From IMG/VR virus record IMGVR_UViG_2737471993_000002: a stretch of 64,000 nt of DNA; one strand, 5' to 3'. The notes beneath the pieces are model-generated. The model searched no databases and was not told the DNA's origin. It worked only from the letters and a program-made list of their open reading frames with translations. Positions 10,813 to 62,306 of the stretch are shown here, one piece after another; the stretch's first letter is position 1; the number at the start of each line of letters is the position of its first letter. The DNA comes from a virus. Lineage: Duplodnaviria > Heunggongvirae > Uroviricota > Caudoviricetes. The position numbers were made by a program, and so were the translations under genes.

Positions 10813-10854
10813 CTATCGACTGCCCCGACCGGGGCAGTCTCACAAGGATGTGAG

Positions 10855-11190: not shown

Positions 11191-11272
11191 GTATCTGGAT
11201 AAGTAAGTACTAATTTACTATCATTGTGGCGCTGACAGGATGTCAGCGCCTACTTATTTCAAGGATGAAACA

Positions 11273-18087: not shown

Positions 18088-18136
18088 TGTAGAAAAAAAT
18101 ATTTATATCGGTAAAAATAAGTAGGTACATACTTAA

Positions 18137-24449: not shown

Positions 24450-25186
24450 ATAGCGCATATTCAAAAGATCTAAGCGAGTTTCCTCATAAAGGGGAGACTC
24501 GTGTTGTTCGTTTTGGCTTTCTTATCAATGAAGCCTCCCTCTATAAAATCTCAGAAATTGAAATCATTGAACCAGAAGATGACATTTGCCTGTATGTCTC
24601 TATGGAACGTGTAGGTGCGCGCAACCAAGGCGACCTGAGCGAATTCATCTTAGATCGAGCGGATGAAGATGCCCCTGAAGAAGAGATTATCAAAGAGGTG
24701 CTCCAGTCCGGGCTTCTGGACGAAAACAAAAATACGATCGCTGGTAGGATAGCTCTGCGTGAATATAGTTTTGTTGAAGACGGTAATGAGATCGAATGTT
24801 ACCAGGTAGCTGGTGTCGAAACTGTCAGAGAGCGTCGTCAGCGAGGATTGTGTCACCGTACCTATCTCTTTCTTCTTCATTGGTATGAGCATTTAGTCTG
24901 CGACGATACACAAACCATTCCTGGTGCTAAGATCTGGGCAGGGCCTCTCATGCGAACCGGCGATGTGCGTATATACAATGCCAAAACAGAAACGTTCGAA
25001 GATGTGTTAGGTGAGTACGGGATGGGGAAAGAAACCGGATTTTTGCCGTGGAACAGAGGATTGTTGCTTGATGCAGAGTTAAGCTCTTGGCTCCCAAACA
25101 AAGTGCAAGTTAACGTTCAGAAATTTATCGTACTTATCATCTCCCGCAAAACAAGAACTCCAGTAGGTTTATACCTAAAAGATTAA
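24434..25186 (+). CDS. hypothetical protein
   Basis: 250-aa ORF overlapping the previous stop; followed by an intrinsic terminator. Confidence 0.5.
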   Translation: MAPTLDSAYSKDLSEFPHKGETRVVRFGFLINEASLYKISEIEIIEPEDDICLYVSMERVGARNQGDLSEFILDRADEDAPEEEIIKEVLQSGLLDENKNTIAGRIALREYSFVEDGNEIECYQVAGVETVRERRQRGLCHRTYLFLLHWYEHLVCDDTQTIPGAKIWAGPLMRTGDVRIYNAKTETFEDVLGEYGMGKETGFLPWNRGLLLDAELSSWLPNKVQVNVQKFIVLIISRKTRTPVGLYLKD

Positions 25187-25191
25187 AAATC

Positions 25192-25214
25192 AGGCGACTT
25201 TGGTCGCCTTTTTT
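25192..25214 (+). terminator. rho-independent terminator
   Basis: AGGCGAC-TTTG-GTCGCCT hairpin followed by TTTTTT. Confidence 0.7.
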
Positions 25215-25362
25215 GTTAACAGCCATTAATTCTCGCCTAAAAATTCTAAGGCAGCACCTACCATTTAACCTTTACACCACAGCCGTAGGCATTTAGGCTA
25301 TATCACATATAAGAAAACAAGTTGTTTCAGACGATAATTATATACGCAAAGGGAACTCTCCA

Positions 25363-26031
25363 ATGACCAAGATCTTTGTGGTTGGCGGCACAAAGGGCGG
25401 GCCTGGCAAATCCACCGTTGCCCAGCAAATTGCCGTTTGCCTGAAAGTCAAAAAGAAGAAGAAGGTTTATATTACCGATATAGATATTCAGCGCACGACA
25501 ACGAGCTGGTGTGAAGACCGTCGACAGAACGAAGACCTTGAGCTGATTCCTTTTGCATACGTTCAGGATGACATCATTAAGCACCTAAAATCGCTTCAGG
25601 GTAGAGCTGAGTTTGTAGTGGTAGATGCTGGTGGCTTCGACTCCGAAATTCAGCGACAAGCGATGCTGATGGCTGACGTTATCATTATCCCGCTGCGTCC
25701 TAAGCGTCGTGATTTGAAATCTTTACGTGACATCGATCCTATTATCGACAATGTTCGCAATGTAAACGATAAAGTGAAGGTCCGCGCGGTCATGAACCAG
25801 TGCCCGGCTTTGCCATCACAAGTGTCTCGCATTCTGGCGGCTAAAGAGATTGTTGAGACGTTTGGCATCGAGTCTGCGCCAGTCAATCTATATAACCGCA
25901 ACGTCTATGATGATGCGGAAGAGTCTGGTCGTTCTATCTTTGAAATGACCGGTAGCGAGCGCGACAAAAAGGCGGAAGCCGAGTTTGAAGAATTTGTAGA
26001 TTATCTGTTGAGTCTGGAGGAAGAAGAATAA
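25363..26031 (+). CDS. parA: ParA-family partition ATPase
   Basis: N-terminal deviant Walker A (VVGGTKGGPGKST), 222 aa, followed by a small overlapping partner gene. Confidence 0.8.
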   Translation: MTKIFVVGGTKGGPGKSTVAQQIAVCLKVKKKKKVYITDIDIQRTTTSWCEDRRQNEDLELIPFAYVQDDIIKHLKSLQGRAEFVVVDAGGFDSEIQRQAMLMADVIIIPLRPKRRDLKSLRDIDPIIDNVRNVNDKVKVRAVMNQCPALPSQVSRILAAKEIVETFGIESAPVNLYNRNVYDDAEESGRSIFEMTGSERDKKAEAEFEEFVDYLLSLEEEE

Positions 26032-26390
26032 TGTCCATGAAAATGGGTGACCTAGCAAAGCGCAAAGAGCCTGATGCACCGGCTAAGAACACAACTCCTT
26101 TGCGCCAACCAGTCAGACCACAGGGACGCCCGACTCGTGGCAAAGAGAAAATTAAAAGCCGCACAATGTCACTGGAAGACGAATACTTCGAACTGCTGGA
26201 GATGATGAAGTTCATCCCTCGCTTCGAGAAGTTCACTCGTTCTGACGTGATTCGAGCAGCCATTTTCCATCTGGCAGAGAAGTCACCGCAGGAAATCGAG
26301 GACATCGTGAAGCTTAACGAGGCGATCACAGCTGCCGACGTTACGATGCGTACCGATGAAATTAAACGAGAGTTGATGAAGAAAGGTTGA
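26031..26390 (+). CDS. small partition-associated DNA-binding protein (ParB/ParG-like)
   Basis: 119-aa basic protein translationally coupled to parA (ATGA-type overlap); role inferred from context. Confidence 0.4.
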   Translation: MSMKMGDLAKRKEPDAPAKNTTPLRQPVRPQGRPTRGKEKIKSRTMSLEDEYFELLEMMKFIPRFEKFTRSDVIRAAIFHLAEKSPQEIEDIVKLNEAITAADVTMRTDEIKRELMKKG

Positions 26391-26432: not shown

Positions 26433-28136
26433 TTGATACTAATGGAATCGATAGAATCATTTCTAAAAAATTTTCTAGTTTCAGATCATCGGGTTGCCGT
26501 CATAAAAGGAGATTGGGGCGTTGGTAAAACTCATTATTGGAATAGTTTTTATACTAAGCATTCTGAAGGATTAGATTTTAATGCATATTCGTATGTTTCT
26601 TTGTTTGGGGTTAACTCTATTGGTGATATTAAAAAAGCTCTTTATCATTGTGCCACACCAATTAATGAAAAGAAATATAAAGAACTAATTTTATCTGAAA
26701 CGGATCGAACTATGATTCGTTATAGAAATGGGTTTTTGGGATGGTTGAAATACAACTCCTTGTCAAAATTTTTAATACATTTCGGAAAGAACGATTTTTT
26801 TGGGTTCAAAACAGATAACCTGCTGTCATCTCTTGAGTATAAATTTGTTAATAATTATTTGGTTTGTATTGATGATGTTGAAAGAAAAGGTAATTCGCTA
26901 GAAGTTAAAGAAATTATGGGGGTAATTGATGAATTGGCAAGAAGAAAAGGCTGCAAAGTTGTTCTAATTTTAAATGAAGATAATTTACATGATGAAACTG
27001 CAAAAAAACAGTTTTTAGAGTACAGAGAAAAAGTAATTGATGTCGAAATAAAATATGATCCTACGCCTGAGAAGAACTTACGTAAAGTTTTTTATGAAAC
27101 TGATTCTGATTTTCTTTTGTTAAAAGTCTTAGCAAATGACTTAGGCATTAAAAATATCCGTATATTAAATAAAATAAAAACATCTCTGGTTAATCTTAGG
27201 AATGAGCTAAGCTTGGCAGAGGATAAGGTTAGAGAAAGTTTTATCAATAGATTGGTTCTGTTTTCAGTGGTTTACTATTCTGGTGTTCCAGGTGTTGATT
27301 ATGCCTTGTTTAAAGAATCAATTAAAAACATACATGTATTTGATTACATGTTAGATGATAAAAAGGATGATTCTGTATATTCATTTATTAATAGTCTTGA
27401 TATTATTTATGAACGAGCGGAAATTGCTTTCGATGATGACATAGATTTTTATCTCAAGAATGGTTATCTTTCTACTGAAAGCAATATTCGAGGTATAATA
27501 GAAGAAAAAAATAAACAATATAAAGAACACAAGGCTTTATGTGAGGTTAACAATGTTTGGGATATTTTTAGTGACTCATTCAAGGACAATGAATCTGAGT
27601 TTATTTCTAAGATAAAATGTGTAATTAACGACAATCTTTCACACATACCTGTTGCTCACTTCATAGGCTTGATTGATATCTTAAATAGATTGGAGATTGA
27701 TTGTGATAGTTATATAGAGGCATATGCAGATGCCTTTGTTAGCCAAGATGATGCTTATACTGCTTTTCGGAATTTGTATGTAGAGATATTTGGTAACGAA
27801 AAGTTAGGTCTGCTAATTCAAAAAAAATTGATGGATAAGAAGCCTGAAGAGACTAATTTAGAGAATGTTTTATACAAAATAATTGAAGGCAAATTTAATC
27901 ATAGTGACATAGCATATCTTAACAGTTTCTCTGAAGATGATTATTTAAAGTGGATATTATCCCGCAATCAGGATGCTTTGGATTTAGTGAGAAAGGGGTT
28001 GCTCAGATTCAAAAGTATGCAAGAACTAACAGAAGAACAGCAAAAAATCACGAATAAAGCAATAGGTGCATTAACGAAACTGGCCTCTAGATCAAGTCTT
28101 AACAAACTACGTGTGAGCAGATTGCTTAATAATTAA
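26433..28136 (+). CDS. KAP-family P-loop NTPase (AT-rich cargo gene)
   Basis: Walker A GDWGVGKTH and Walker B LVCIDDVER fit the KAP family. The gene is visibly more AT-rich than flanking backbone genes. Confidence 0.6.
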   Translation: MILMESIESFLKNFLVSDHRVAVIKGDWGVGKTHYWNSFYTKHSEGLDFNAYSYVSLFGVNSIGDIKKALYHCATPINEKKYKELILSETDRTMIRYRNGFLGWLKYNSLSKFLIHFGKNDFFGFKTDNLLSSLEYKFVNNYLVCIDDVERKGNSLEVKEIMGVIDELARRKGCKVVLILNEDNLHDETAKKQFLEYREKVIDVEIKYDPTPEKNLRKVFYETDSDFLLLKVLANDLGIKNIRILNKIKTSLVNLRNELSLAEDKVRESFINRLVLFSVVYYSGVPGVDYALFKESIKNIHVFDYMLDDKKDDSVYSFINSLDIIYERAEIAFDDDIDFYLKNGYLSTESNIRGIIEEKNKQYKEHKALCEVNNVWDIFSDSFKDNESEFISKIKCVINDNLSHIPVAHFIGLIDILNRLEIDCDSYIEAYADAFVSQDDAYTAFRNLYVEIFGNEKLGLLIQKKLMDKKPEETNLENVLYKIIEGKFNHSDIAYLNSFSEDDYLKWILSRNQDALDLVRKGLLRFKSMQELTEEQQKITNKAIGALTKLASRSSLNKLRVSRLLNN

Positions 28137-28305
28137 GTATTCATGACCTGTTTCTGTATATAAATAATAAGTAACTTATTAAATATACGGAAGCAGGTCT
28201 TTCAAAAGATACCCACCAGAACAACTCCCTTCCGTTTCCACTTCCAAAAACTGCCACCAATCGCTATCATCAGCTCATTGTGATAAGTAAGTAACTACCT
28301 ACCAG

Positions 28306-29055
28306 GTGAGCCACATGAGCCAAATCTTTTTCGACACCATCGACAACGACCAGTACGACTTCATGACAGAGTGGAATACCGCTGTTATGGATAAGTGGGT
28401 TGCTGAAAACATTGGTTTGTCGCGCTGCAAAGACGAGGCTGAACTCTTCGATACGAAGTGGTTTGATTACCGCGACATGCATCCTCTTATGGCCACCTGT
28501 CTGTTTACGGAGGCATACAAACGTCAGTACTCAAATATCATGCTGACGCACGGTCGCGAACACTTTGAAACAGCTCCGTTCACCACCGGGTTAAAACGCC
28601 TGCCTTATCAGGAGTTGTCGACTGCCAATAAAACGTCGCTATGGAAAGCACGCCAGTTTGCTGACCGCTATTGCTGCTCATACGACTACTTTATCTCCAC
28701 CGTTCTTTCCGCAGCTGCACGACGTCTGTGGGACAAGCTGCCTCGCCCACAGCATTTGTGGCAGCCAGAACTGATTGAGATATTTGAAGAGAAATTAGCC
28801 AGACGCGCAACAACCCGTCTGGATGACTCTCTGGTTAGCTTTAAGCATATAGGAGACATGCAGTTCAACCCGATCCAGGAAAGCTATTTTGAGTGGATTC
28901 TGGAGCGTTTACGCACCATCCCCCGCAGCAAGCGCATACGCGCAATTTTCTCCGCTATCTGGCTAATGGAAATCGTTCCAGAGCGCCTTATTTCCGCCCA
29001 CTTTCCAGAAGAACTGGAAGAAGCACGGCGGTTTATTGATCCCCTATCTAATTAA
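28306..29055 (+). CDS. hypothetical protein (replication module)
   Basis: 249-aa ORF upstream of the helicase gene; no recognisable motif. Confidence 0.5.
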   Translation: MSHMSQIFFDTIDNDQYDFMTEWNTAVMDKWVAENIGLSRCKDEAELFDTKWFDYRDMHPLMATCLFTEAYKRQYSNIMLTHGREHFETAPFTTGLKRLPYQELSTANKTSLWKARQFADRYCCSYDYFISTVLSAAARRLWDKLPRPQHLWQPELIEIFEEKLARRATTRLDDSLVSFKHIGDMQFNPIQESYFEWILERLRTIPRSKRIRAIFSAIWLMEIVPERLISAHFPEELEEARRFIDPLSN

Positions 29056-29098
29056 CTAATACTAGAAAACAATTTGTTTAAAAAACAAAGGAAAGCAC

Positions 29099-30439
29099 AT
29101 GACCGAACTTTGCCATACAGGACGCGGGCTGTCCGAAGAGTTTGATGAAGATTTCCAGAACAGACTGACGGCATATTTTTGTCGTGATCACGAGTTTCTT
29201 ACTCGTGCGGGAGATCTGGTTGTGCCTAGCCAATTTGCCAATGCGGCCAATGCCATATTGGTTAATATGGTTTCGGGCTATTACCGTATGTACAAGAGCG
29301 CGCCCTCTTCATCTGCAATTCTGGATATGCTTAAGCGTGCGAAACGCGATAAGACTATCCGTGAGGAACTATTCGCCGATGTTGTTGCTGCGTTTAAGCG
29401 CATCCTTGCAGAAAAATTGTCCGATACCTCGTACATGGTTGACCAGGTATCAACCTTCGCAAAAAGCGTAGCGTTTGATGATGCTCTGATTAAGGCTGCT
29501 GAACTGAAAGAGAAAGGCGACTTTCAGGGGGCGATGGCAATCATGGCCAAGGTTCAGCAGATTGGATCGAACGAAGCGACCGGAATCTATGACTACTACA
29601 CCTCCGCAAGTGAGCGATTGAAAGCGCGTGAATATGAGGCTTCAGAGGAGTATGTACCAAACAGTATTACAACAGGACTCCCTCTTCTCGATAGGTTGCT
29701 GTACCAAAAAGGCTGGGCAAAGCGCGAAATGGTGCTTTTCATGGGGTTCGCTAAATCCGGTAAATCGACCGCAATGGGTGAGTTTTCCATAAACGCAACG
29801 CTTGCTGGCTACAATGTTCTGTATCTCTCGCTGGAGGTTCACACCAACATTTTGTCCGACCGCTTTGATGCAAGATTGTCGGAGACGGAAATGTCCAAGC
29901 TGGTGGAACGGCGCGATGAAGTTCATCGTAAGTTGGCAGAGTTGGGAGCCACTAAGGGGATTGGTAGTTTGTGGGTTGTTGAGCGTCCGTCAGGAAGTAT
30001 GTCACCGGCAGATCTGGACCGTATGCTTAACAGCATGAAAGCCAATGGCATGGTGCCTGACATGCTTGTTGTCGACTACGCAGATTTGATGCGTGCCAGT
30101 TATGACCTTCGTGATGATCGCGCCAACATTCGTAGTATCTACACCGATTTACGTGCTCTTTATGACAAACACAACGTTGCTGGTATCACAGCATCGCAAA
30201 CAAACCGTGAAGGTGGCGCGTCAGAAGTTGCCACAATGATGCACGCTGCCGACAACATCGAAAAAGTACGTATTGCTGACCTGGTAATAACGATCAACAA
30301 AACCGAAGAAGAAGAAGCGAAAGGAGAGGCTCGTCTCTACTTTGCTGGTTCGCGTAACCAGCAGGGAGGGATCAGCATTCGCGTTAAACAAAACCTCGAA
30401 CAAATGCGCTTCATTGAGCGAATCTTAGACGTTACCTAA
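29099..30439 (+). CDS. replicative DNA helicase (DnaB / gp41-like)
   Basis: Walker A GFAKSGKST preceded by a DnaB-like GLPLLDRLL segment; RecA-type core throughout the C-terminal half. Confidence 0.7.
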   Translation: MTELCHTGRGLSEEFDEDFQNRLTAYFCRDHEFLTRAGDLVVPSQFANAANAILVNMVSGYYRMYKSAPSSSAILDMLKRAKRDKTIREELFADVVAAFKRILAEKLSDTSYMVDQVSTFAKSVAFDDALIKAAELKEKGDFQGAMAIMAKVQQIGSNEATGIYDYYTSASERLKAREYEASEEYVPNSITTGLPLLDRLLYQKGWAKREMVLFMGFAKSGKSTAMGEFSINATLAGYNVLYLSLEVHTNILSDRFDARLSETEMSKLVERRDEVHRKLAELGATKGIGSLWVVERPSGSMSPADLDRMLNSMKANGMVPDMLVVDYADLMRASYDLRDDRANIRSIYTDLRALYDKHNVAGITASQTNREGGASEVATMMHAADNIEKVRIADLVITINKTEEEEAKGEARLYFAGSRNQQGGISIRVKQNLEQMRFIERILDVT

Positions 30440-30520
30440 AAAATAAGCGTGGAGAACACCTCCACGCTTGATTCATTGGTGAAACAACTTTTCTTTTGCC
30501 AAACCACAAAAGAAAAACAC

Positions 30521-31702
30521 ATGAGCCTTTATGTTATATCAACATTTAGGTTGGTCACAATATTGCCTGTTAAAAGTGGAATTATCGTGAGCGAGCTGAA
30601 AGAGCTAATTGCCGAATTAGATTTTGAACAATGGTTGGATACTGAAGGTATCGTTTATCGACGTGGAGGCGTGAGTGCTCGCGGTCGTGAAGTGAATATC
30701 AAAGAGTGTCCGGTATGCGGCAGCTCCAACTGGAAGGTATATTTCAATCTGACCAGTGGCGTCGGTAAATGCTTCGCTGGTGATCATCCCGAAGAGATTC
30801 AGTTCAATAAGCTGGTCTTCCTCAAGCACTACAGCGGCAAATCACGACGACAGTTCGAGGAATATGTGCAGAACGCCCTTCTTTCCCAGGGGTGGGCACC
30901 AAAGAAAGAAGAGCTAGTGCTTGCAAGCACAGTCGAGTTAGAGGGGCCAGTTGCACTCCCTCGTCATTACGAGCTTCCTATAGATGGCCGTCTTCCAGAC
31001 TATCTGGTTGAACGAAACATATCACCTGAAATGGCAAAGTATTTTGACCTACGATACTGCGTCGAAGGCAAGCACGCTTATGTAGATCCGTATACAGATC
31101 AGGTAAAAGGGCAGATATTCGATATGCGAATACTGATACCGGTTTACGATCTGGATGGGGTAATGAAGACATTTCAGGGACGAGACATTACCGGTACAGC
31201 AGAACGCCGCTACCTCTTTCCTATGCAGCTTCCAGCTTCAGGTAAGTTTCTCTACAACGGCCATAATGCAGTCGGCAAACAGACTGTAGTTGTCTGTGAG
31301 GGGGCGTTCGATGTTATGGGGGTTAAACGAGCTATTTTTGACGAAGAAACATTACGTGATTACGTGGAACCAATAGGAACGTTCGGGATGCATCTATCTG
31401 GTAACACCACTCAGGATGCAGAAGATCAGTTAGGCGCGTTCCTGACGCTCAAGGCGCGTGGGTTACGTAATGTGATCATGATGTGGGATAGTGAAAAGCA
31501 AGCTATACGCAACACTATGGCCGCAGCCAGGCGACTGAGCAGTATTGGTCTTAATGTGAAAATTGCATGTTTGGGCGAGGAAGGACTCGACCCCGGCGAT
31601 GCGACCCCGGGGCAGATTATCAAAGCCTACTATTGCGCAAAACCTTACTCACGACAGCTTGAACTCTTAAGCAAGGTGAAAGGCATTGCAGCACTAGTTT
31701 GA
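30521..31702 (+). CDS. DNA primase (zinc-binding plus TOPRIM)
   Basis: CPVCGS...C zinc-ribbon-like motif and acidic TOPRIM-like segment (VVCEGAFDV...MWDSE). Start placed at the ATG following the shared AGAAAAACAC leader; the track ORF starts at 30449. Confidence 0.6.
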   Translation: MSLYVISTFRLVTILPVKSGIIVSELKELIAELDFEQWLDTEGIVYRRGGVSARGREVNIKECPVCGSSNWKVYFNLTSGVGKCFAGDHPEEIQFNKLVFLKHYSGKSRRQFEEYVQNALLSQGWAPKKEELVLASTVELEGPVALPRHYELPIDGRLPDYLVERNISPEMAKYFDLRYCVEGKHAYVDPYTDQVKGQIFDMRILIPVYDLDGVMKTFQGRDITGTAERRYLFPMQLPASGKFLYNGHNAVGKQTVVVCEGAFDVMGVKRAIFDEETLRDYVEPIGTFGMHLSGNTTQDAEDQLGAFLTLKARGLRNVIMMWDSEKQAIRNTMAAARRLSSIGLNVKIACLGEEGLDPGDATPGQIIKAYYCAKPYSRQLELLSKVKGIAALV

Positions 31703-32839
31703 ACCAGTATTAGTCACATACACATTGACCGAAAATGATTTAACTTCTGTATTGAAGTTGTCAGTCATTACCGCGAGGTAGGCATTCTTGGTATCTCTGA
31801 ATTGCTTCAGGATGATTTGAACGTTATCGGTGCAAACAAACGAGGTAGCCAGATTGCCTCCTTTCTCTGAAAAATCCTTCAGGAAGGTGCAGTCAACTTT
31901 GCCATCATTAGCGGTGAAGGTAGCATCATCACCCTGCCAGGTAAATGTAGCGTTAACGCCCTTATCAATGGATTTAGCAATAAGTCGCTGGGTGGCGGAT
32001 TTTGTTTTGGCTTTGGAAGCCGGCGCTCGATATTTGCCGCTTTCTTTCAGTTCTGCAATGTAATCGCAGCCTCTTTTTTCTCCTTTATCGCAAGCAGTCT
32101 GATAAAGGTCGGCTGCTTTTTTATAGTCCTTTTTTACACCTTCCCCATTCTCATACATAATGCCAAGATTGGTTATGGCGTCGGCGTTTCCAAGTTCCGC
32201 TGCCTTTTTATACCACTTAACTGCTTCTGCATCATTGCGTTTAACGCCTAACCCATCATCGTATAGTATTCCTAATCCTATCATAGCTTCTGAACTGCCT
32301 TGGTCTGCCGCCTTTTTGTAATAAGTAAAAGCCTTTTTATAATTCTTTTTAACGCCTTTACCATATTGGTAATACGCCCCAAGAACTGAAGTTGCTTTAA
32401 CATACCCGGCATCAGAGGCTAGTTTGAAGTATTTAATGGCGAGTGCATGATCTACTTTACCAAGCATCCCCTTTTGATAAATAGCACCAAGATTGTTGTA
32501 GGCTCTACCTTCACGAGCATCCCCCGCAAGTTTGTAGTACTCAACAGCTTTATTTAGGTCTTTATCTACACCCTCGCCAAATGTGTACATAACTCCAAGT
32601 GCATAATATGCTACTTTATCTCCCTTTTCTGCAGCTAGATCAATCCACTTCTTGGCCTCAACTACATCCTTATCAAAACCATTGACACCATCAAAATAAT
32701 TTGTACCTAACTCACTTTGTGCTGCGGTATCCCCTGCGGTAGCGGCTTCTATCAGCGTTTGTTTATTGTCTGCGTTAACGAATCCAGAGTTAAAAAGCAA
32801 AGTTAATGCCAGCAACGATGAAGATTTTATGTATTTCAT
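31694..32839 (-). CDS. secreted Sel1-repeat protein
   Basis: Signal peptide MKYIKSSSLLALTLLFNSGFVNA, about seven Sel1-like repeats, and a ~110-aa C-terminal domain. Convergent with, and slightly overlapping, the primase 3' end. Confidence 0.65.
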   Translation of the reverse strand: MKYIKSSSLLALTLLFNSGFVNADNKQTLIEAATAGDTAAQSELGTNYFDGVNGFDKDVVEAKKWIDLAAEKGDKVAYYALGVMYTFGEGVDKDLNKAVEYYKLAGDAREGRAYNNLGAIYQKGMLGKVDHALAIKYFKLASDAGYVKATSVLGAYYQYGKGVKKNYKKAFTYYKKAADQGSSEAMIGLGILYDDGLGVKRNDAEAVKWYKKAAELGNADAITNLGIMYENGEGVKKDYKKAADLYQTACDKGEKRGCDYIAELKESGKYRAPASKAKTKSATQRLIAKSIDKGVNATFTWQGDDATFTANDGKVDCTFLKDFSEKGGNLATSFVCTDNVQIILKQFRDTKNAYLAVMTDNFNTEVKSFSVNVYVTNTGSN

Positions 32840-33071
32840 GTTTTTTTTCTGTTGATATAGGATGAACAGTTTAGACGCGGCAAGCGTCAAGTGTGCGAAA
32901 AAGGGTACTTAAATTTAGTTAATATGTCAGCTTTGTTGATTTAGTTTATGGTCGGTAAAGTTACTGGGAAACTAATAACCATAAGAAATAGTACGCCATT
33001 TAATTATTGTGGCACTGCTCGTGTTTTGATTAACTAATACCTGCGATAAATATAAATAAAGGGAAGCCAAC

Positions 33072-33485: not shown

Positions 33486-33610
33486 AGGTGAATGCTGGGC
33501 TGAGGATATGCCCGGCATCTTAGTATAAACAACTATTGCACCTAAAATGATAAGTAGATACATACTTAAGTTTTTGTAAGAATACTTTCATCCGTTAGCT
33601 AGGAGTTGGT

Positions 33611-37061: not shown

Positions 37062-37451
37062 AAACACAATAATAAGTATTTACTTACTTATCTTTTATGT
37101 ATAAGATGACTTTGTTTTCGTTGAGACGCGACTGTTTGAACTTAAATACAAGTGCAAACGAAGAAGTCTATCTGGCAGTAGCCTAATAAGCCAAACACCA
37201 GCGAGGTCAGTTTCCAGCCTCGTTACCGAAATGGGACACACTGAGCGAGTGTGATTGCAGAACGCAGGAGGGAACATGAGTGTTCCCTCCGATGAAGTAA
37301 CAGAATGGGCGGTCGGTATATTTTCAACTCCATATGACTCCCGGATTCTTAGCCTCTGACCGCCCATCCTGTTACGTCATTTTGTTCAATTATGTCGTTT
37401 ATACTGGGTTAAAAAGCGGCGACGTAGCCCGGCTGGTATGGTTAGCCAGCA

Positions 37452-49742: not shown

Positions 49743-50015
49743 AAAGAATTATGGCGCTTGTTGAGGAAGTCACTCCTCTTACGCACTTTGTTTTGCCATG
49801 CCGGCAGTTAGCTTCTGCCTTTGACTATTCATGCGGCAACCCCGCATTTCGCCACAATGGGCAATTCACTTTTATGGAATAAACTGGCCGTTGTGTCGAT
49901 TTAATTAGCATGGCCTTACCATGCTAATTTATTCAACTTGTACAATCCTACAAATCTATCCACTCAGGCTTACACCGTCTTCGTTATTGTAGAAATGAGG
50001 ATCATCAGCGTTGAA

Positions 50016-50231
50016 TCAGCTTAGAGCAACGACATTTGCTGCTGCTGGGCCTTTAGCCCCATTCTCGATAGAGAATTCGACCTGCTGGCCTTCTTCCAAA
50101 GTGCGGAAATTATTACTCTGAATTGCCGAAAAATGTACAAAAACATCTTTACTGCCATCAGCAGGAGAAATAAAGCCAAAGCCTTTATCAGAGTTAAACC
50201 ATTTTACTAAACCAGTCATTTTATTAGACAT
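50016..50231 (-). CDS. cold-shock protein (CspA family)
   Basis: [21 protein letters not shown]...VFVHFSAI contains the RNP1/RNP2-type cold-shock motifs; the track ORF is N-terminally extended. Confidence 0.8.
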
Positions 50232-50560
50232 AGATATTACCTTCTTAATTTTGTGAGCCACATAGTGCGGCGAGAATTTGATCTGTATAGATTGGGACTT
50301 ACTTAGGCACTTAAGGAGGAGACTCACGAAGAAGGGAAATCAGAAGATAACACTGAACTGAGACTGCTTTACTAAAACTGCTTACATAAGGTCTGTCTTG
50401 CAAACCAACGATGCTATTAACGCATACCCCTTCTTTTCATGCAACCTTTATTTTTCAAAGATAACTAATTTTTGTCACCATTGGTTTAGTAAACGTTAAC
50501 GAACCAGACGATGCCAGACACCTTTACAGAGAACAGATGCCCGCCAATTGGCGGGCATCA

Positions 50561-52095: not shown

Positions 52096-52212
52096 TTTTT
52101 GATAGATAATAAGTAAGTACTGATCTATCATTTAACAGCTCGAAAGAGCCACGAATGAACGAAAGCCCAACGCGCATAGCGCCATCGGCCAAATCACAAC
52201 AAGGAGAAACAC

Positions 52213-53241
52213 ATGTCTAAGACATTACTTGATTTGCTTAACAAAACTCGTGAAGACATTGCCGCCAAACGTGGCAACAACGTTGATCTGACTCGCTTAA
52301 AAGACGGCGTCAACTATATCCGCATCTTCCCGAATAAAGACGACCCAAACGGTAAGTTCTTCCAGACTTTCGGTATGCACTACGTTAAGTATCAGAACGA
52401 GGAAGGTAAAGAAGCAACCAACGCTTATATTTGTGAGCAACATACTCACGGTCGCGCTTGTCAGCTATGCGAAATGGTTATGGAAGGTCGCGCTCGTCAC
52501 AAGGGTAACAAAGCAATGGAAGAACGCATCGGTCAAATGCGTGCCACTCCTCGCTACCTGGTCAACGGCATTCTTTCTGCTCGTGAGGATTTCGCAGATG
52601 CTGAGAAATGCCAGTTAATCGAGCTGCCGTCTACTGTATTCGATGATATCTGCAAAGCAATCACCGAAGACATCGCTGATGATATCGGCAATCCACTGAG
52701 CAAAGAGGAAGGCTACGCATTCCTGATTAAACGTACTGGCTCTGGTCGCGATACCAAATATGACGTCTCGCCTAAGCGTAAAGTCTACAAAGGCGATATC
52801 GAAGATAAATTCTGGAACACCCAGCATGATCTGATCGCATACGCAAATCAGGCTGATGAAACTCGTCTTCTGTCGACAGTTCGCACTATGGGTCGTCTGA
52901 TTGGCATCGCTGCACCAACTGCCGCAGCATCTGCACCAGCAATTTCCTCAACCGCGAAAACATCGGCTGCGGCACTACCTGGATTTGGCTCTGTCACTGG
53001 TCATACAGAAGGAGCGACGGCTGTAGCAACCGCGCACACACCGGCTTCTGAACCAACCAGTCTGGTTGATGAAGAAATCCTCCGTGCCGTTGAAACTGAA
53101 TTTAAACCAGAGGCAAGTTCCGCTGCCGTTGCCGTATCAGTCAAAGAGTCTGAAGCAGTCGCAGCGACATCTGTAGCAACCGCATCTGCGACGGAAGATG
53201 AAGGTCTGGATGACCTACTGAGAGAGCTGGACTCTCTGTAA
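52213..53241 (+). CDS. single-stranded DNA-binding protein (T4 gp32-like)
   Basis: Zn-binding-like C..H..C..C cluster (CEQHTHGRACQLCEM), N-terminal segment resembling the gp32 core, and acidic C-terminal tail (DEGLDDLLRELDSL). Confidence 0.6.
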   Translation: MSKTLLDLLNKTREDIAAKRGNNVDLTRLKDGVNYIRIFPNKDDPNGKFFQTFGMHYVKYQNEEGKEATNAYICEQHTHGRACQLCEMVMEGRARHKGNKAMEERIGQMRATPRYLVNGILSAREDFADAEKCQLIELPSTVFDDICKAITEDIADDIGNPLSKEEGYAFLIKRTGSGRDTKYDVSPKRKVYKGDIEDKFWNTQHDLIAYANQADETRLLSTVRTMGRLIGIAAPTAAASAPAISSTAKTSAAALPGFGSVTGHTEGATAVATAHTPASEPTSLVDEEILRAVETEFKPEASSAAVAVSVKESEAVAATSVATASATEDEGLDDLLRELDSL

Positions 53242-55588: not shown

Positions 55589-55593
55589 ACACA

Positions 55594-55617
55594 AGGCGTC
55601 CACAGGACGCCTTTTTT
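55594..55617 (+). terminator. rho-independent terminator
   Basis: AGGCGTC-CACAG-GACGCCT followed by TTTTTT. Confidence 0.7.
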
Positions 55618-55680
55618 ATCTCTTGAAAATATATAAGCACTTACTTATTATTTTCGCATAACAACCACATAGGAAAACAC

Positions 55681-55881
55681 ATGATCAAAATCTATCTATT
55701 GGCAGTAGCCACAGGCCTTTCAGTGGCTCTCATCTACGGTTTACTGGTTCCGTCGCTGATTTCTACCAAGAGTGATTTAGCCGTCATGTTTGGAGTTATC
55801 GTTGGTTTTGGTGCTCCTGTAATCGGTCTTATTGCTGGTCGTAAGTTTATCAACTCATTAATCAAAGCAAAGGGGAAATAA
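55681..55881 (+). CDS. small two-TM membrane protein
   Basis: 66 aa, two hydrophobic helices, immediately upstream of the SPFH gene. Confidence 0.4.
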   Translation: MIKIYLLAVATGLSVALIYGLLVPSLISTKSDLAVMFGVIVGFGAPVIGLIAGRKFINSLIKAKGK

Positions 55882-56731: not shown

Positions 56732-56757
56732 AGGCGTCCAGTTGGACGCCTTTTTTA
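56732..56757 (+). terminator. rho-independent terminator, near-identical to the one at 55594
   Basis: CAGGCGTCCA-GTTGGACGCC followed by TTTTTT; same stem sequence as the 55594 terminator. Confidence 0.7.
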
Positions 56758-56806
56758 TCGCAATTATCTTATTAAGAAAACAATTTGTTTAAAAGGATAA
56801 GAAAAC

Positions 56807-57232: not shown

Positions 57233-57287
57233 TCGCCTATTCATAACTAACAAAATAAGTAAACACTAACCACAAAAGGAAAAACAC

Positions 57288-57563
57288 ATGAGAGTTTTAG
57301 TTCGAATCGTTACCAGCACTGTCTATGACGTGTTTCCGCTTTTTATGGTCAAAGCCGATGGCCTTAACGACGAAGAAACTGACGCGCTGATCCAGCGTAT
57401 TCTCGTTGAATATACAGGTCATGACGCTGATTCAGTGATGGTTGATGATGATGGTGTTTGTTGGCATAACGGCAACTGTTGGTACGTAGAAGAGACTCAA
57501 CAAATCAGTGATGAAGATGCCGCACATCTTGAGCGTATTTTAAGCATCAGCACTTTTGAGTGA
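57288..57563 (+). CDS. hypothetical protein
   Basis: 91-aa acidic ORF preceded by the AAAGGAAAAACACATG leader. Confidence 0.45.
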   Translation: MRVLVRIVTSTVYDVFPLFMVKADGLNDEETDALIQRILVEYTGHDADSVMVDDDGVCWHNGNCWYVEETQQISDEDAAHLERILSISTFE

Positions 57564-60966: not shown

Positions 60967-61220
60967 CCCTCCAGATCGTATATTGGCGTAGATAGAATCT
61001 ACGCCCCCTCAAAATAGCTCTCATAGCGTTCTACAGTGATCCTGTCTTATTTTTAGTCATACAGACAAGCAAAGTTGCGCCACGATAAATAGGTATATAC
61101 TTACTTATAAATTTTGTATATTAAGGCGCTCGTTTCATTCCTAACATACCGTTATGCATAGTTGTTTACCTCCTCATTGCTCTTAGAATTTGTATCAAAA
61201 TAACCACAAAGGAAAAATAC

Positions 61221-62306
61221 ATGACTTTGCCATACGGCGTCATTTCTGACTGCCACTACCACAAATGGGATGCGTTCTCCACGACGAACGCTGAGGGGCT
61301 TAACTCCAGACTTGAAATACAGTTGGAAGCAACGAAAGAAGCAGCCATCGCCATGAAGAAGGCCGGTTGTAAGTACATGTTGGTTGCCGGTGATACATTT
61401 CACGTCCGAGGAACTGTGTCCCCTTCTGTTTTGCATTACGTAACTGAAACGTACAAGTGGATTATCAACGAGCTTGATCTGACAGTAGTAATGCTGGCCG
61501 GTAATCACGATCTTGAAACCAACGATTCAGTATATAGCGCCAACGCAGCAGCATCGCTGAGTTCTATCGGCGTGGTAATCGTATGTGGCAAGCGCCCACA
61601 CTCAATAAAAATTGGTGATGTGACTGTCCACCTGATTAGCTGGCGTAACAATCATGCGGAGCTTATCAGCGATCTGAAAGCATTACGTAAGAGCGTAGAA
61701 GGTGATAATCATGACGTTGTTATCCATACATCCATTAACAAAGCCATTCCAACAATGCCTGACGTCGGTATCGATGCGCAGGAGTTAAAGGATATCGGCT
61801 TTCGTCTCGTGCTTAGTGGGCATTACCACAACCACAAAGAGGTCATTCCTGGAGTTATCAGTGTCGGTGCACTGACTCATCAAAATTGGGGAGATGTTGG
61901 ATCTCTGGCTGGCTACATGATCGTAAACCCGGACGGCAGTTTCAGTCACTACGAAACCAGTGCGCCTAAATTCATTAACCTGGAAGATGATGTTGCTGAT
62001 GACCAAATTCGCGGCAACTACGTGCGTTTCCGCGCCGTAATTGAGAACGATGAAGAAGGCATTAAGTACCAGAACATCCTCAAAACAATGGGTGCAAAAG
62101 GTGTCGTGTGCAACTTCATCCGTAAGTCATCAATGATGGAAGGGACAGCCAGCACAACTGAAACCAGCAAAATCGATAGCCTGGGAGAGTCGGTATCTGC
62201 TTATTGCAAGATTGTCCACGATACTGACGGCGGATTTGATCTGAGCAAATTGGATATTTTGTGTCAGGAAATCCTCACCGAAGCGGAGAGTTCGGAGGCT
62301 GTGTGA
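61221..62306 (+). CDS. SbcD/Mre11-family nuclease (T4 gp47-like)
   Basis: Calcineurin-like phosphoesterase motifs DCHYH, GDTFH, GNHD and GHYH in canonical order. Confidence 0.7.
   Translation: MTLPYGVISDCHYHKWDAFSTTNAEGLNSRLEIQLEATKEAAIAMKKAGCKYMLVAGDTFHVRGTVSPSVLHYVTETYKWIINELDLTVVMLAGNHDLETNDSVYSANAAASLSSIGVVIVCGKRPHSIKIGDVTVHLISWRNNHAELISDLKALRKSVEGDNHDVVIHTSINKAIPTMPDVGIDAQELKDIGFRLVLSGHYHNHKEVIPGVISVGALTHQNWGDVGSLAGYMIVNPDGSFSHYETSAPKFINLEDDVADDQIRGNYVRFRAVIENDEEGIKYQNILKTMGAKGVVCNFIRKSSMMEGTASTTETSKIDSLGESVSAYCKIVHDTDGGFDLSKLDILCQEILTEAESSEAV

Follow-up and report, generated by a model that had tools for sequence, protein, structure and literature searches.

Why does an identical sequence of 20 nucleotides (nt) stand in front of two separate genes of one phage genome, and does it form a unit with the near-identical leaders that precede a further set of start codons in the same DNA? 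We addressed this question in the window, that is, the whole 64,000-nt stretch of IMG/VR record IMGVR_UViG_2737471993_000002. Judged by its sequence, the window is an Escherichia coli phage-plasmid of the SSU5/pHCM2-like type. Its helicase region was 100% identical to the E. coli plasmid NZ_CP031294.1; identity was 97-98% with Escherichia phage Cyrano (pLF82) and CMS-2020a and 80% with Salmonella phage SSU5. The segment at 56.5-57.3 kb was 100% identical to CP099286.1. The open reading frame (ORF) calls were consistent with the annotated gene order of Cyrano (head, tail, lysis, parA, helicase, primase, ligase, tRNAs, integrase, repressor, cobT/cobS, DNA polymerase III alpha, recombination genes, and repA). 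A sequence-only reading had interpreted the repeat and the leaders as a common promoter or translation-initiation cassette. Our results retain the idea of a shared regulatory signal that is tied to promoters and exceeds both chance and a Shine-Dalgarno (SD) sequence, but the 20-mer itself is neither a promoter nor a translation cassette. We estimate a probability of roughly 60% that the 20-mer is one member of a set of dispersed operators with dyad symmetry for a dimeric regulator, which would be encoded by elements of the SSU5/pHCM2/pMT1 family and would act by repression.

The 20-mer AGAAAACAATTTGTTTAAAA was indeed present as two exact copies, at 29064-29083 and 56775-56794. A search of the window with a 19-mer form of it returned these two and one match with three mismatches at 25313, against 0.07 expected; this weaker third match had been missed by the sequence-only reading. 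The core of the 20-mer is a perfect 13-base-pair (bp) dyad, AAACAA-N-TTGTTT, extended to AGAAAACAA-N-TTGTTT, and the operator consensus was AGAAAACAA-N-TTGTTT(TCT). With at most one mismatch, the core occurred four times in the window (25315, 29067, 42542, and 56778), with the start codons of parA, the helicase gene, cobT, and the DUF7238 gene 29-48 nt downstream. A scan with a position weight matrix (PWM) likewise gave four sites scoring at least 19, the remainder being at background. The four dyads, like the promoters and leaders described below, lie on the + strand. The top score of the window (27.8) belonged to the dyad AGAAAACAA-T-TTGTTTAAA at 29064-29082, before the DnaB-like helicase gene (ATG 29099), and the scan recovered its exact copy at 56775-56793 before the DUF7238 gene (ATG 56807). 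The dyad AGAAAACAA-G-TTGTTTCAG at 25312-25330, before parA (ATG 25363), scored 27.5, and a degenerate dyad, AGTAAATAA-T-TTGTTTTCA, at 42539-42557 before cobT (ATG 42574), scored 19-20. A lone half-site, AGAAAACAA, at 44758-44766 (+ strand) was fused to the SD of the AAA_5 (CobS-like) gene (ATG 44778).

The same site was strongly enriched in relatives. In the roughly 104 kb of Cyrano that were examined, AAACAANTTGTTT with at most one mismatch occurred 18 times, compared with 0.75 in shuffled sequences (maximum 3), and Klebsiella oxytoca carried four sites in 40 kb against 0.15 expected. Seventeen of the 18 Cyrano sites lay 24-86 nt upstream of start codons, in two groups at 24-53 nt and 72-86 nt, a count for which three annotated starts were corrected, the annotated ATG being inside the motif or the -10 box. 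PHROG profiles start at residues 8, 13, and 24 of the three proteins. The starts annotated for CYRAN_105, CYRAN_108, and CYRAN_110 (OV696614) lie within the operator or the -10 box, and the genuine starts are probably 7-23 codons farther downstream. Other Cyrano copies were found in tandem (two) before the small terminase gene and singly before nrdB and a TerB/TciA-like gene; about ten more lay at 93-99 kb before small genes, for which Pfam, PHROGs, and NCBIfam returned only matches of unknown function. The proposed "early/replication" gene set is thus too narrow a description, since sites also precede parA and cobT, nrdB, the small terminase gene, and many small genes without a known function.

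Could AT-rich composition and a generic SD account for all of this? With two mismatches the 13-mer was unenriched in the window (7 matches against 6 expected), and AAGGA belongs to the general ribosome-binding core of the genome, (c)aAAGGA, as such an explanation would have it. However, the enrichment with at most one mismatch was strong, sites occupied orthologous positions across genera in DNA that could not otherwise be aligned, and the leaders showed a gap in score, an excess of CAC-ATG, and conservation at orthologous genes. The conservation and enrichment tests refuted chance and composition as the source, and we give that explanation next to no credence.

The sites at all four window genes had conserved counterparts in relatives. 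The parA, helicase, and cobT sites were kept in plasmids of Klebsiella pneumoniae, of Salmonella Typhi (pHCM2-type), and of K. oxytoca, and Yersinia pestis pMT1 had sites at cobT, at the DUF2591/DUF7238 operon, and at two small genes. The parA dyad was conserved in five lineages, including the further lineage L029. At cobT, perfect orthologous sites were carried by Klebsiella and pHCM2-type plasmids and by pMT1, as well as by many IMG/VR contigs. For the DUF7238 gene, the orthologous site AGAAAACAAATTGGTT followed a TATTAT box in pHCM2 and Enterobacter, and a copy was also present in pMT1. When a 701-bp query from the helicase region (28700-29400) was compared with K. oxytoca, the sole DNA similarity was a segment of 42 nt that covers the site together with the leader and ATG. 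The IMG/VR scan with the 16-mer AGAAAACAANTTGTTT produced many AT-rich chance matches, and only 44 loci with DNA similarity to the family (on related contigs of 90-112 kb) were used, which yielded 40 non-redundant contexts.

The pattern of variation fits a protein reading double-stranded DNA. At the helicase site, TAGAAAACAA-N-TTGTTTAA was invariant in five divergent relatives, with T, A, C, G, or A at the centre, and the central base of 81 unique sites was A in 26, T in 21, G in 19, and C in 15. When the arms were folded by symmetry, single-mismatch variants were balanced (position 1, four left and four right; position 6, five left and five right). Equal variation in both arms together with a free centre is characteristic of duplex DNA recognised by a protein with two-fold symmetry. 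An RNA hairpin, AAACAA-N-UUGUUU, was rejected by inspection, as it would have a 1-nt loop and at most a 4-bp A-U-rich stem. To our knowledge, none of the host sites for LexA, CRP, Fur, KdgR, IHF, NrdR, and other regulators fits the motif; the KdgR-type site, which we take to be AAACA-N-TGTTT, differs from it by one base pair per arm.

The sites were also tied to promoters, all of which are consensus-based predictions. Among these 40 contexts, a good -10 hexamer ended 8-11 nt before the AGA in 21, and the control window showed no peak. These hexamers were GATAAT, TATTAT, or TAAATT, often with an upstream TG. With such a spacing, the site would be at about +3 to +20, and the SD often follows it by just 2-4 nt. 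Thirteen of the 18 Cyrano sites and all four sites of the window lay downstream of the -10 box, and on this ground we read them as repressor operators that would be active in the plasmid state. A second class of site, AAACAA-N-TTGTTTTCT, overlapped the -35 region of a TGnGATAAT promoter. Several promoters had sites of both classes, with centres about 51 bp apart and flanking the TGnGATAAT, and one relative carried three TTGTTTTCT units upstream of a GATAAT box. We also considered the copies near -38 as downstream-type sites of divergent antisense promoters, which was rejected: the opposite strand offers TATCTC or TATCAC, no -10 with T at position 6, and these sequences are the complement of the forward extended -10.

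In the window, the predicted helicase promoter (29036-29063) consists of a -35 box, TTGATC (29036-29041), a spacer of 16, and a -10 box, AATACT (29058-29063), which the dyad abuts; it overlaps the 3' end of ORF 28315-29055. In four lineages this promoter kept TTGA in the -35 box and A2 and T6 in the -10 box, the -10 boxes being AATACT, TAGTAT, TACGAT, and CATAAT. The promoter of the 56807 gene (56742-56770) is predicted as TTGGAC, located in the 3' arm of a terminator, a spacer of 17, and TATCTT, with the site 4 nt farther on. A cleaner version was present in pHCM2 and Enterobacter, where TTGGAC-16-TATTAT is followed after 8 nt by AGAAAACAA. For parA the prediction is TTTACA-17-TAGGCT (25271-25299), with the dyad 12 nt after the -10 box, and the promoter/site block of about 60 nt was nearly invariant in E. 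coli, Klebsiella, and pHCM2-type plasmids. The cobT gene has a predicted extended -10 box, TGcTACATT (42521-42529), with the dyad 9 nt later, and its relatives had TGaTAAATT or TGaTACATT at the same distance.

Both exact copies had been described as lying just after a terminator, which holds for one of them. An intrinsic terminator, AGGCGTCC-agtt-GGACGCCT followed by a T-tract (56732-56757, + strand), ends the SPFH gene upstream of the 56775 copy, with its stem at 56732-56751. Upstream of 29064 the scan found no terminator, and the stop codon of ORF 28315-29055 is only 9 nt away. The terminators at 55593-55613 and 56732-56751 have nearly the same stem, GGCGTCC-N4-GGACGCC plus TTTTTTAT, and the 3' arm of the latter doubles as the -35 box of the next promoter, giving a compact cassette of terminator, promoter, operator, and leader. 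Directly upstream of the cobT promoter lies a hairpin, CTGCGCGAA-N15-TTCGCGCAG (42488-42520), represented in relatives by CTGTACGAACAG-N9-CTGTTCGTACAG; although its position is conserved, it is no obvious terminator, since no T-run follows it.

From these data we propose the following mechanism. The operator copies would be read as double-stranded DNA in the transcription-start region of sigma-70-type promoters by an element-encoded, site-specific DNA-binding protein acting as a dimer or a dimer of dimers, and occupancy would block the binding or the escape of RNA polymerase. At some promoters, a second copy overlaps the -35 region, about five helical turns upstream. Within the window, joint control would extend to the operons of parA and DUF7238 and to the units of replicative helicase/primase and cobT-cobS-DNA polymerase III; the rest of the genome would contribute nrdB, the terminase operon, and about ten small genes. 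Most likely, a single plasmid-encoded protein switches the site-bearing genes together, and their expression is most likely held low as long as the element is maintained as a plasmid. Transcription data for the LF82 (Cyrano) lysogen grown in LB give 7 for the terminase gene, 8 for cobT, 6 for the DUF7238 gene, 13 for nrdB, and 21 for the helicase gene, compared with 50-89 for the par operon (PMC9928086 S1 Table). Most site-bearing genes were therefore near background in the lysogen, and the par operon was higher. Cyrano is inducible by ciprofloxacin (PMC9928086).

Within the window, the best candidate for the binding protein is a ParG-like protein of 119 amino acids (26031-26390, + strand), encoded directly after the small ParA gene (25363-26031, with ParA Pfam hits). 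Its tail is basic and disordered and precedes a predicted strand-helix-helix, and the protein matched a ribbon-helix-helix family weakly (E 2e-4, below the cut-off). The AlphaFold2 (AF2) monomer model, with a disordered N-terminus and helices at 48-59 and 70-82, was compatible with strand-helix-helix. In homologues with 53% overall identity, PQGRPTRGK..IKSRTMS.EDE and the helix FTRSDVIRAAI, in which the putative DNA-reading segment is contained, were invariant, and the Cyrano homologue was transcribed in the lysogen. CYRAN_29, annotated as a "RelE/ParE toxin", looks like a ParG-type partition protein, and the annotation is likely an error. The parA-parG-type operon carries a conserved copy of the site at its own promoter; by analogy, the ParG-like protein might act on the dyad as omega (pSM19035) or KorB (RK2) acts on its operators.

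Several observations weigh against this operator model. The gap between the site and the predicted -10 box is 0 nt at 29064 and 4 nt at 56775, compared with the modal 8-11 nt, and a strict sigma-70 scan reported no promoters at 29036-29063 and 56742-56770, so that these two predictions rest on conservation across lineages. The extended arm AGAAAACAA lies nearly always on the sense strand at downstream-type sites (six exact copies on the + strand of the window and none on the - strand), which tells against a purely symmetric DNA site, since a function at the RNA level or linked to the start site would predict such a bias. A profile search of the PDB and a Foldseek search with the monomer model found no sequence or fold match for the ParG-like protein and thus did not confirm a ribbon-helix-helix. 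Yersinia pMT1 has no ParG-like gene, yet it has kept perfect sites, although pMT1 may be too young for the sites to have decayed. Finally, low expression in the lysogen could equally reflect the lack of an activator or the presence of a bound repressor.

This last point leads to a reading in which the dyad is an activator site or a promoter-specificity element that turns its genes on in lytic development or plasmid establishment. The genes would then be silent in lysogens for want of the activator, the copies near -38 over weak -35 boxes with strong extended -10 boxes would have the geometry of class II activation, and the half-site array upstream of one promoter would fit as well. However, most sites lie at about +3 to +20, where bound proteins normally repress; many of the promoters have a near-consensus -10 box with a TG extension and should need no activation; and parA, which is needed in the plasmid state, also has a site. 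We therefore consider positive control decidedly doubtful.

Alternatively, the dyads could be centromere-like loading sites for the ParA/ParG-like system with no regulatory role. A conserved copy stands directly before parA in every lineage examined, and the adjacent gene resembles that of a type Ib centromere-binding protein. Type Ib centromeres, however, are repeat arrays next to the par operon, whereas a single dyad is found at parA here, and no clusters of half-sites that might form a centromere were detected in the window or specifically in 25150-25400. Segregation would also leave unexplained why the other 17 copies stand at a fixed short distance from the -10 box and the start codon, and the sites kept in pMT1 without a ParG-like gene speak against it as well. 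A role in partition only is very improbable.

The sense-strand bias fits an RNA-level operator. Here, a FljA-family protein with a tandem Hfq fold would recognise the motif, and perhaps also the leader GAAAACA(C)-AUG, within the 5' untranslated region (UTR) of the mRNAs, repressing translation and destabilising the mRNA as FljA does on fliC mRNA. A suitable protein exists in the close relative Cyrano, where CYRAN_114 (L003 46781-47302, - strand, outside the window) is a full-length match to PF03614 Flag1_repress (E 1e-80). Full-length homologues were found on 831 plasmids, including 341 of Klebsiella and 62 of Yersinia, and on pMT1, making the FljA-family protein a core gene of SSU5/pHCM2/pMT1 phage-plasmids. 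The AF2 model of CYRAN_114 (predicted local distance difference test score, pLDDT, 82.8) has two domains, each of a helix plus five strands, and its best PDB matches were all Hfq; according to the model, the protein consists of two tandem Hfq-like Sm domains and has no helix-turn-helix (HTH). It is about 40% identical to an annotated chromosomal phase-1 flagellin repressor (P0084, Atlantibacter hermannii). FljA reportedly binds the fliC 5' UTR. Klebsiella and Y. pestis, as hosts of the element, are non-motile, so that flagellin is an unlikely target of the FljA-like protein there. Sites of the downstream type fall within the predicted 5' UTR on the sense strand, often 2-4 nt from the SD, and the fliC leader of Salmonella and Citrobacter, ...ACATCAAGTTGTAATTGATAAGGAAAAGATC-ATG, shares CAAGTTGT and TAAGGAAA..C-ATG with the K. 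oxytoca helicase leader. We accordingly regard the FljA-like protein as a second candidate binder of the sites.

Other evidence speaks for DNA as the target. The perfect dyad, its free centre, and the equivalent variants in the two arms are properties of a duplex. The copies overlapping -35 regions and the half-site arrays upstream of -10 boxes lie outside the transcript of that promoter, and the predicted start of helicase transcription falls inside the left arm. The fliC leader matches only 8 of the 12 core positions, which is not significant in a leader of 62 nt. The fliC gene of E. coli K-12 presumably lacks the CAAGTTG core. Yet a FljA-type repressor abolishes motility in E. coli, making motile cells non-motile (PMC2652032). 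The promoter of the FljA-like gene had no copy of the motif, and hence no autoregulatory motif was found there. On balance, control at the RNA level by this protein is unlikely. A wider version appears quite unlikely; in it, the FljA-family protein would read AGAAAACAA-N-UUGUUU or GAAAACAC-AUG leaders on the element's own mRNAs and repress translation of replication/early genes across the element, and Salmonella FljA would be a domesticated offshoot that captured fliC through a AAGGAAAA-type leader.

Is the leader part of the same device as the operator? The two had been combined into one cassette, and both are real, but they can be separated: most genes with the leader lack the 20-mer, and in relatives many sites of the 20-mer type precede ordinary GGAG-type ribosome-binding sites. 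In the window, AAAGGAAAAACACATG with at most three mismatches gave 7 matches against 1.19 expected. When all 64 predicted starts were scored against AACCACAAAGGAAAAACAC-ATG, eight genes reached at least 16/22 and all others at most 15/22; the eight were 57288, 61221, 30521, 55681, 46194, 29099, 44778, and 52213. Seven of them had been proposed from the sequence alone, and the eighth is 46194, the gene for DNA polymerase III alpha. CAC stood directly before the ATG at 9 of the 64 starts, compared with about one expected. The conservation extends beyond a generic SD to the spacer AAA(A)CAC and an upstream (A)ACCACA, contrary to the view that the similarity is limited to the SD. All eight leader genes are non-structural, and none of the structural genes among the 64 starts has the leader.

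The helicase leader, AAAACAAAGGAAAGCAC-ATG (29081-29101), keeps AAGGAAAGCACATG in K. oxytoca and other lineages. A short ORF or extension before the primase GTG at 30587 has AACCACAAAAGAAAAACAC-ATG (30502-30523), and the AAA_5/CobS-like gene has GAAAACAAAGGAAAAACGC-ATG (44759-44780; K. oxytoca orthologue, AAAAGGAAAACAC-ATG). DNA polymerase III alpha is preceded by AACCAGAAAGGTAAAAACAC-ATG (46175-46196; K. oxytoca, GAAGGAAAGCAC-ATG) and the gene for a gp32-like single-stranded DNA-binding protein by ATCACAACAAGGAGAAACAC-ATG (52194-52215). The leader of a small membrane protein gene, AACCACATAGGAAAACAC-ATG (55662-55683; pHCM2, AAAAGGAAACAC-ATG), lies downstream of a promoter, TTGAAA-17-TATTAT (55623-55651). 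The consensus copy, AACCACAAAAGGAAAAACAC-ATG (57269-57290), belongs to a gene for 91 amino acids, and AACCACAAAGGAAAAATAC-ATG (61202-61223), before the SbcD-like gene, lies downstream of TTGTTT-16-TAGAAT. In five of the eight genes (29099, 44778, 52213, 57288, and 61221), AAGGA was located 6-7 nt from the ATG; the SD was AAGG at 46194, AGGA at 55681, and AAAGAAAAA at 30521 (AAAGGAAAAA in Klebsiella). Orthologues in K. oxytoca and pHCM2 kept AAAGGAAA(A/G)CAC-ATG in surrounding DNA that had diverged.

The leaders folded less than the other regions compared: their mean minimum free energy was -2.85 kcal/mol, against -5.3 and -6.3 kcal/mol (P = 0.003), and the unpaired probability across the SD and AUG was 0.70, against 0.52-0.57 (P = 0.001). 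Conservation and weaker folding together suggest that the leader is a strong translation-initiation region, A/C-rich, unstructured, and typical of the family; it appears separate from the operator and is an ordinary, if unusually uniform, ribosome-binding region. GAAAACA is common to the leader and the left arm of the operator. Together with the half-site fused to the SD at 44778, this means that operator and leader may share an ancestry or a reader.

The start at 30521 is not the primase start annotated in relatives, which is GTG 30587. Positions 30521-30586 hold a conserved ORF or N-terminal extension of 22 codons (MSLY..RL..ILP.K), in frame with primase in E. coli and pHCM2-type plasmids. 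It has six codons in K. oxytoca, and in Klebsiella it is separate and ends 2 nt before the primase ATG. This arrangement suggests translational coupling with primase. Another initiation region with a distinct appearance was noted at the minor tail gene (ATG 10855), where the ribosome-binding site at 10839-10854, CTCACAAGGATGTGAG, forms a hairpin with AGGA in the loop and resembles what we take to be the high-affinity CsrA consensus, RUACARGGAUGU.

The window also encodes an HTH repressor (41625-42011), with a different, perfect palindrome, GGTAAGTGCTTACC, at its own divergent promoter (42043-42056). Given this difference, the repressor is probably not the binder of the 20-mer. The palindrome is related to a second dispersed motif found in at least 14 intergenic regions, which consists of variably spaced TAAGTA/TACTTA palindromes such as TAAGTA-N6-TACTTA and ATAAGcaCTTACTTAT. 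These were located at 1124, 4699-4712, 11200-11209, 18118-18135, 22334, 28168, 28284-28293, 33551-33568, 37073-37090, 44701-44718, 52110-52119, 55635-55650, 57256, and 61098-61107, including positions before structural and lysis genes and inside promoter spacers. About 31 of the 50 hexamer matches fell within the roughly 15% of the window that is intergenic. They are probably operators of the HTH repressor, or late promoters.

Three accessory genes, at 26442-28136 (+ strand), 31694-32890 (- strand), and 38593-39927 (- strand), break the conserved backbone. Their products are a KAP-family P-loop nucleoside triphosphatase (NTPase; low guanine-plus-cytosine content, 0.34), a Sel1-repeat protein, and a protein with a weak AbiC-like match, and the genes may serve defence or be other cargo. 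An Rfam scan of the window at the gathering score found only a cspA thermoregulator, associated with a cold-shock protein gene (49991-50409, - strand), and three tRNA genes (37840-38083, + strand), with nothing at 29064 or 56775. Outside the window, at L003 45000-45500 (Cyrano, about 99.0-99.5 kb), a long non-coding stretch rich in short CGCG-containing repeats and small hairpins adjoins the clustered small genes that carry operators and may serve as an origin or for packaging.

Phage-plasmids of the SSU5/pHCM2 type are common in clinical Enterobacteriaceae, and a search with just the helicase-region query returned 726 plasmid records. S. Typhi pHCM2 and Y. pestis pMT1 both belong to this family. 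The literature searched contained no account of what governs the switch of these elements between maintenance as a plasmid and lytic growth, and no description of the motif. A conserved 19-bp site at 18 or more promoters, which serve the partition operon, the terminase, and the replicative helicase among others, provides a testable handle on the control circuit, and it can help to annotate promoters and to revise start codons in genomes of the family. A dispersed operator is the kind of element expected of a plasmid-prophage, even though this particular site is undescribed in the literature searched.

Among known systems, operators and initiation regions that act in mRNA share some features with the sequences described here. 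Like the fliC operator of FljA and the operators of T4 RegA, the site lies in the 5' leader by an AAGGAAA-type SD and is common to a set of mRNAs, but those proteins act on single-stranded RNA without a dyad, whereas the site here is a dyad. The leader resembles the A-rich or CA-rich unstructured initiation regions of phages in its strong AAGGA(A/G) SD, its A-rich spacer of 7-8 nt, and its low structure; it differs in a near-identity over about 19 nt (AACCACAAAGGAAAAACAC) and in the CAC before the AUG, being specific to the family and conserved at orthologous genes.

Closer parallels to the operator are found among plasmids and plasmid-prophages. In the phage-plasmid P1, C1 operators are scattered over the plasmid-prophage of about 100 kb and overlap promoters, with targets that include the ban helicase and late-gene control. 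As here, one short site is present in many copies at promoters, a DnaB-type helicase gene is among the targets, and one protein of the element represses the whole set in the plasmid state, as we propose for this element. By eye, however, the C1 site, which we take to be the asymmetric 17-mer ATTGCTCTAATAAATTT, is unrelated in sequence to the symmetric AGAAAACAANTTGTTT, and no C1 homologue was seen in this element. The KorA and KorB operators of RK2 are palindromes of 12-13 bp at about 7-12 promoters, and KorB is also a partition protein. They share with the present sites short palindromes repeated at promoters, a coordination of replication, partition, and other functions, and, for KorB, a free or variable centre. 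Their sequences, GTTTAGCTAAAC and TTTAGCSGCTAAA, are unlike the site here, and KorB is a large HTH protein of the ParB family that can act at a distance, whereas the candidate here is small and ParG-like and the distances to the -10 box are short and fixed. Omega of pSM19035 and ParG of TP228 are small type Ib proteins with a flexible N-terminal tail that bind short units in inverted or direct repeats with a period of about 7 bp and repress several promoters, the one of their own par operon among them. In line with them, the 6-bp arms lie 7 bp apart centre to centre, half-site arrays occur, and a site stands at the promoter of the parA-parG-type operon (25312-25330), but without a repeat array; omega and ParG bind arrays of 7-10 units, found at three promoters, compared with usually one dyad per promoter at 18 or more promoters here. 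Although it matches none of them in sequence, the site would, by analogy, work like the operators of P1 C1, RK2 KorA/KorB, or pSM19035 omega.

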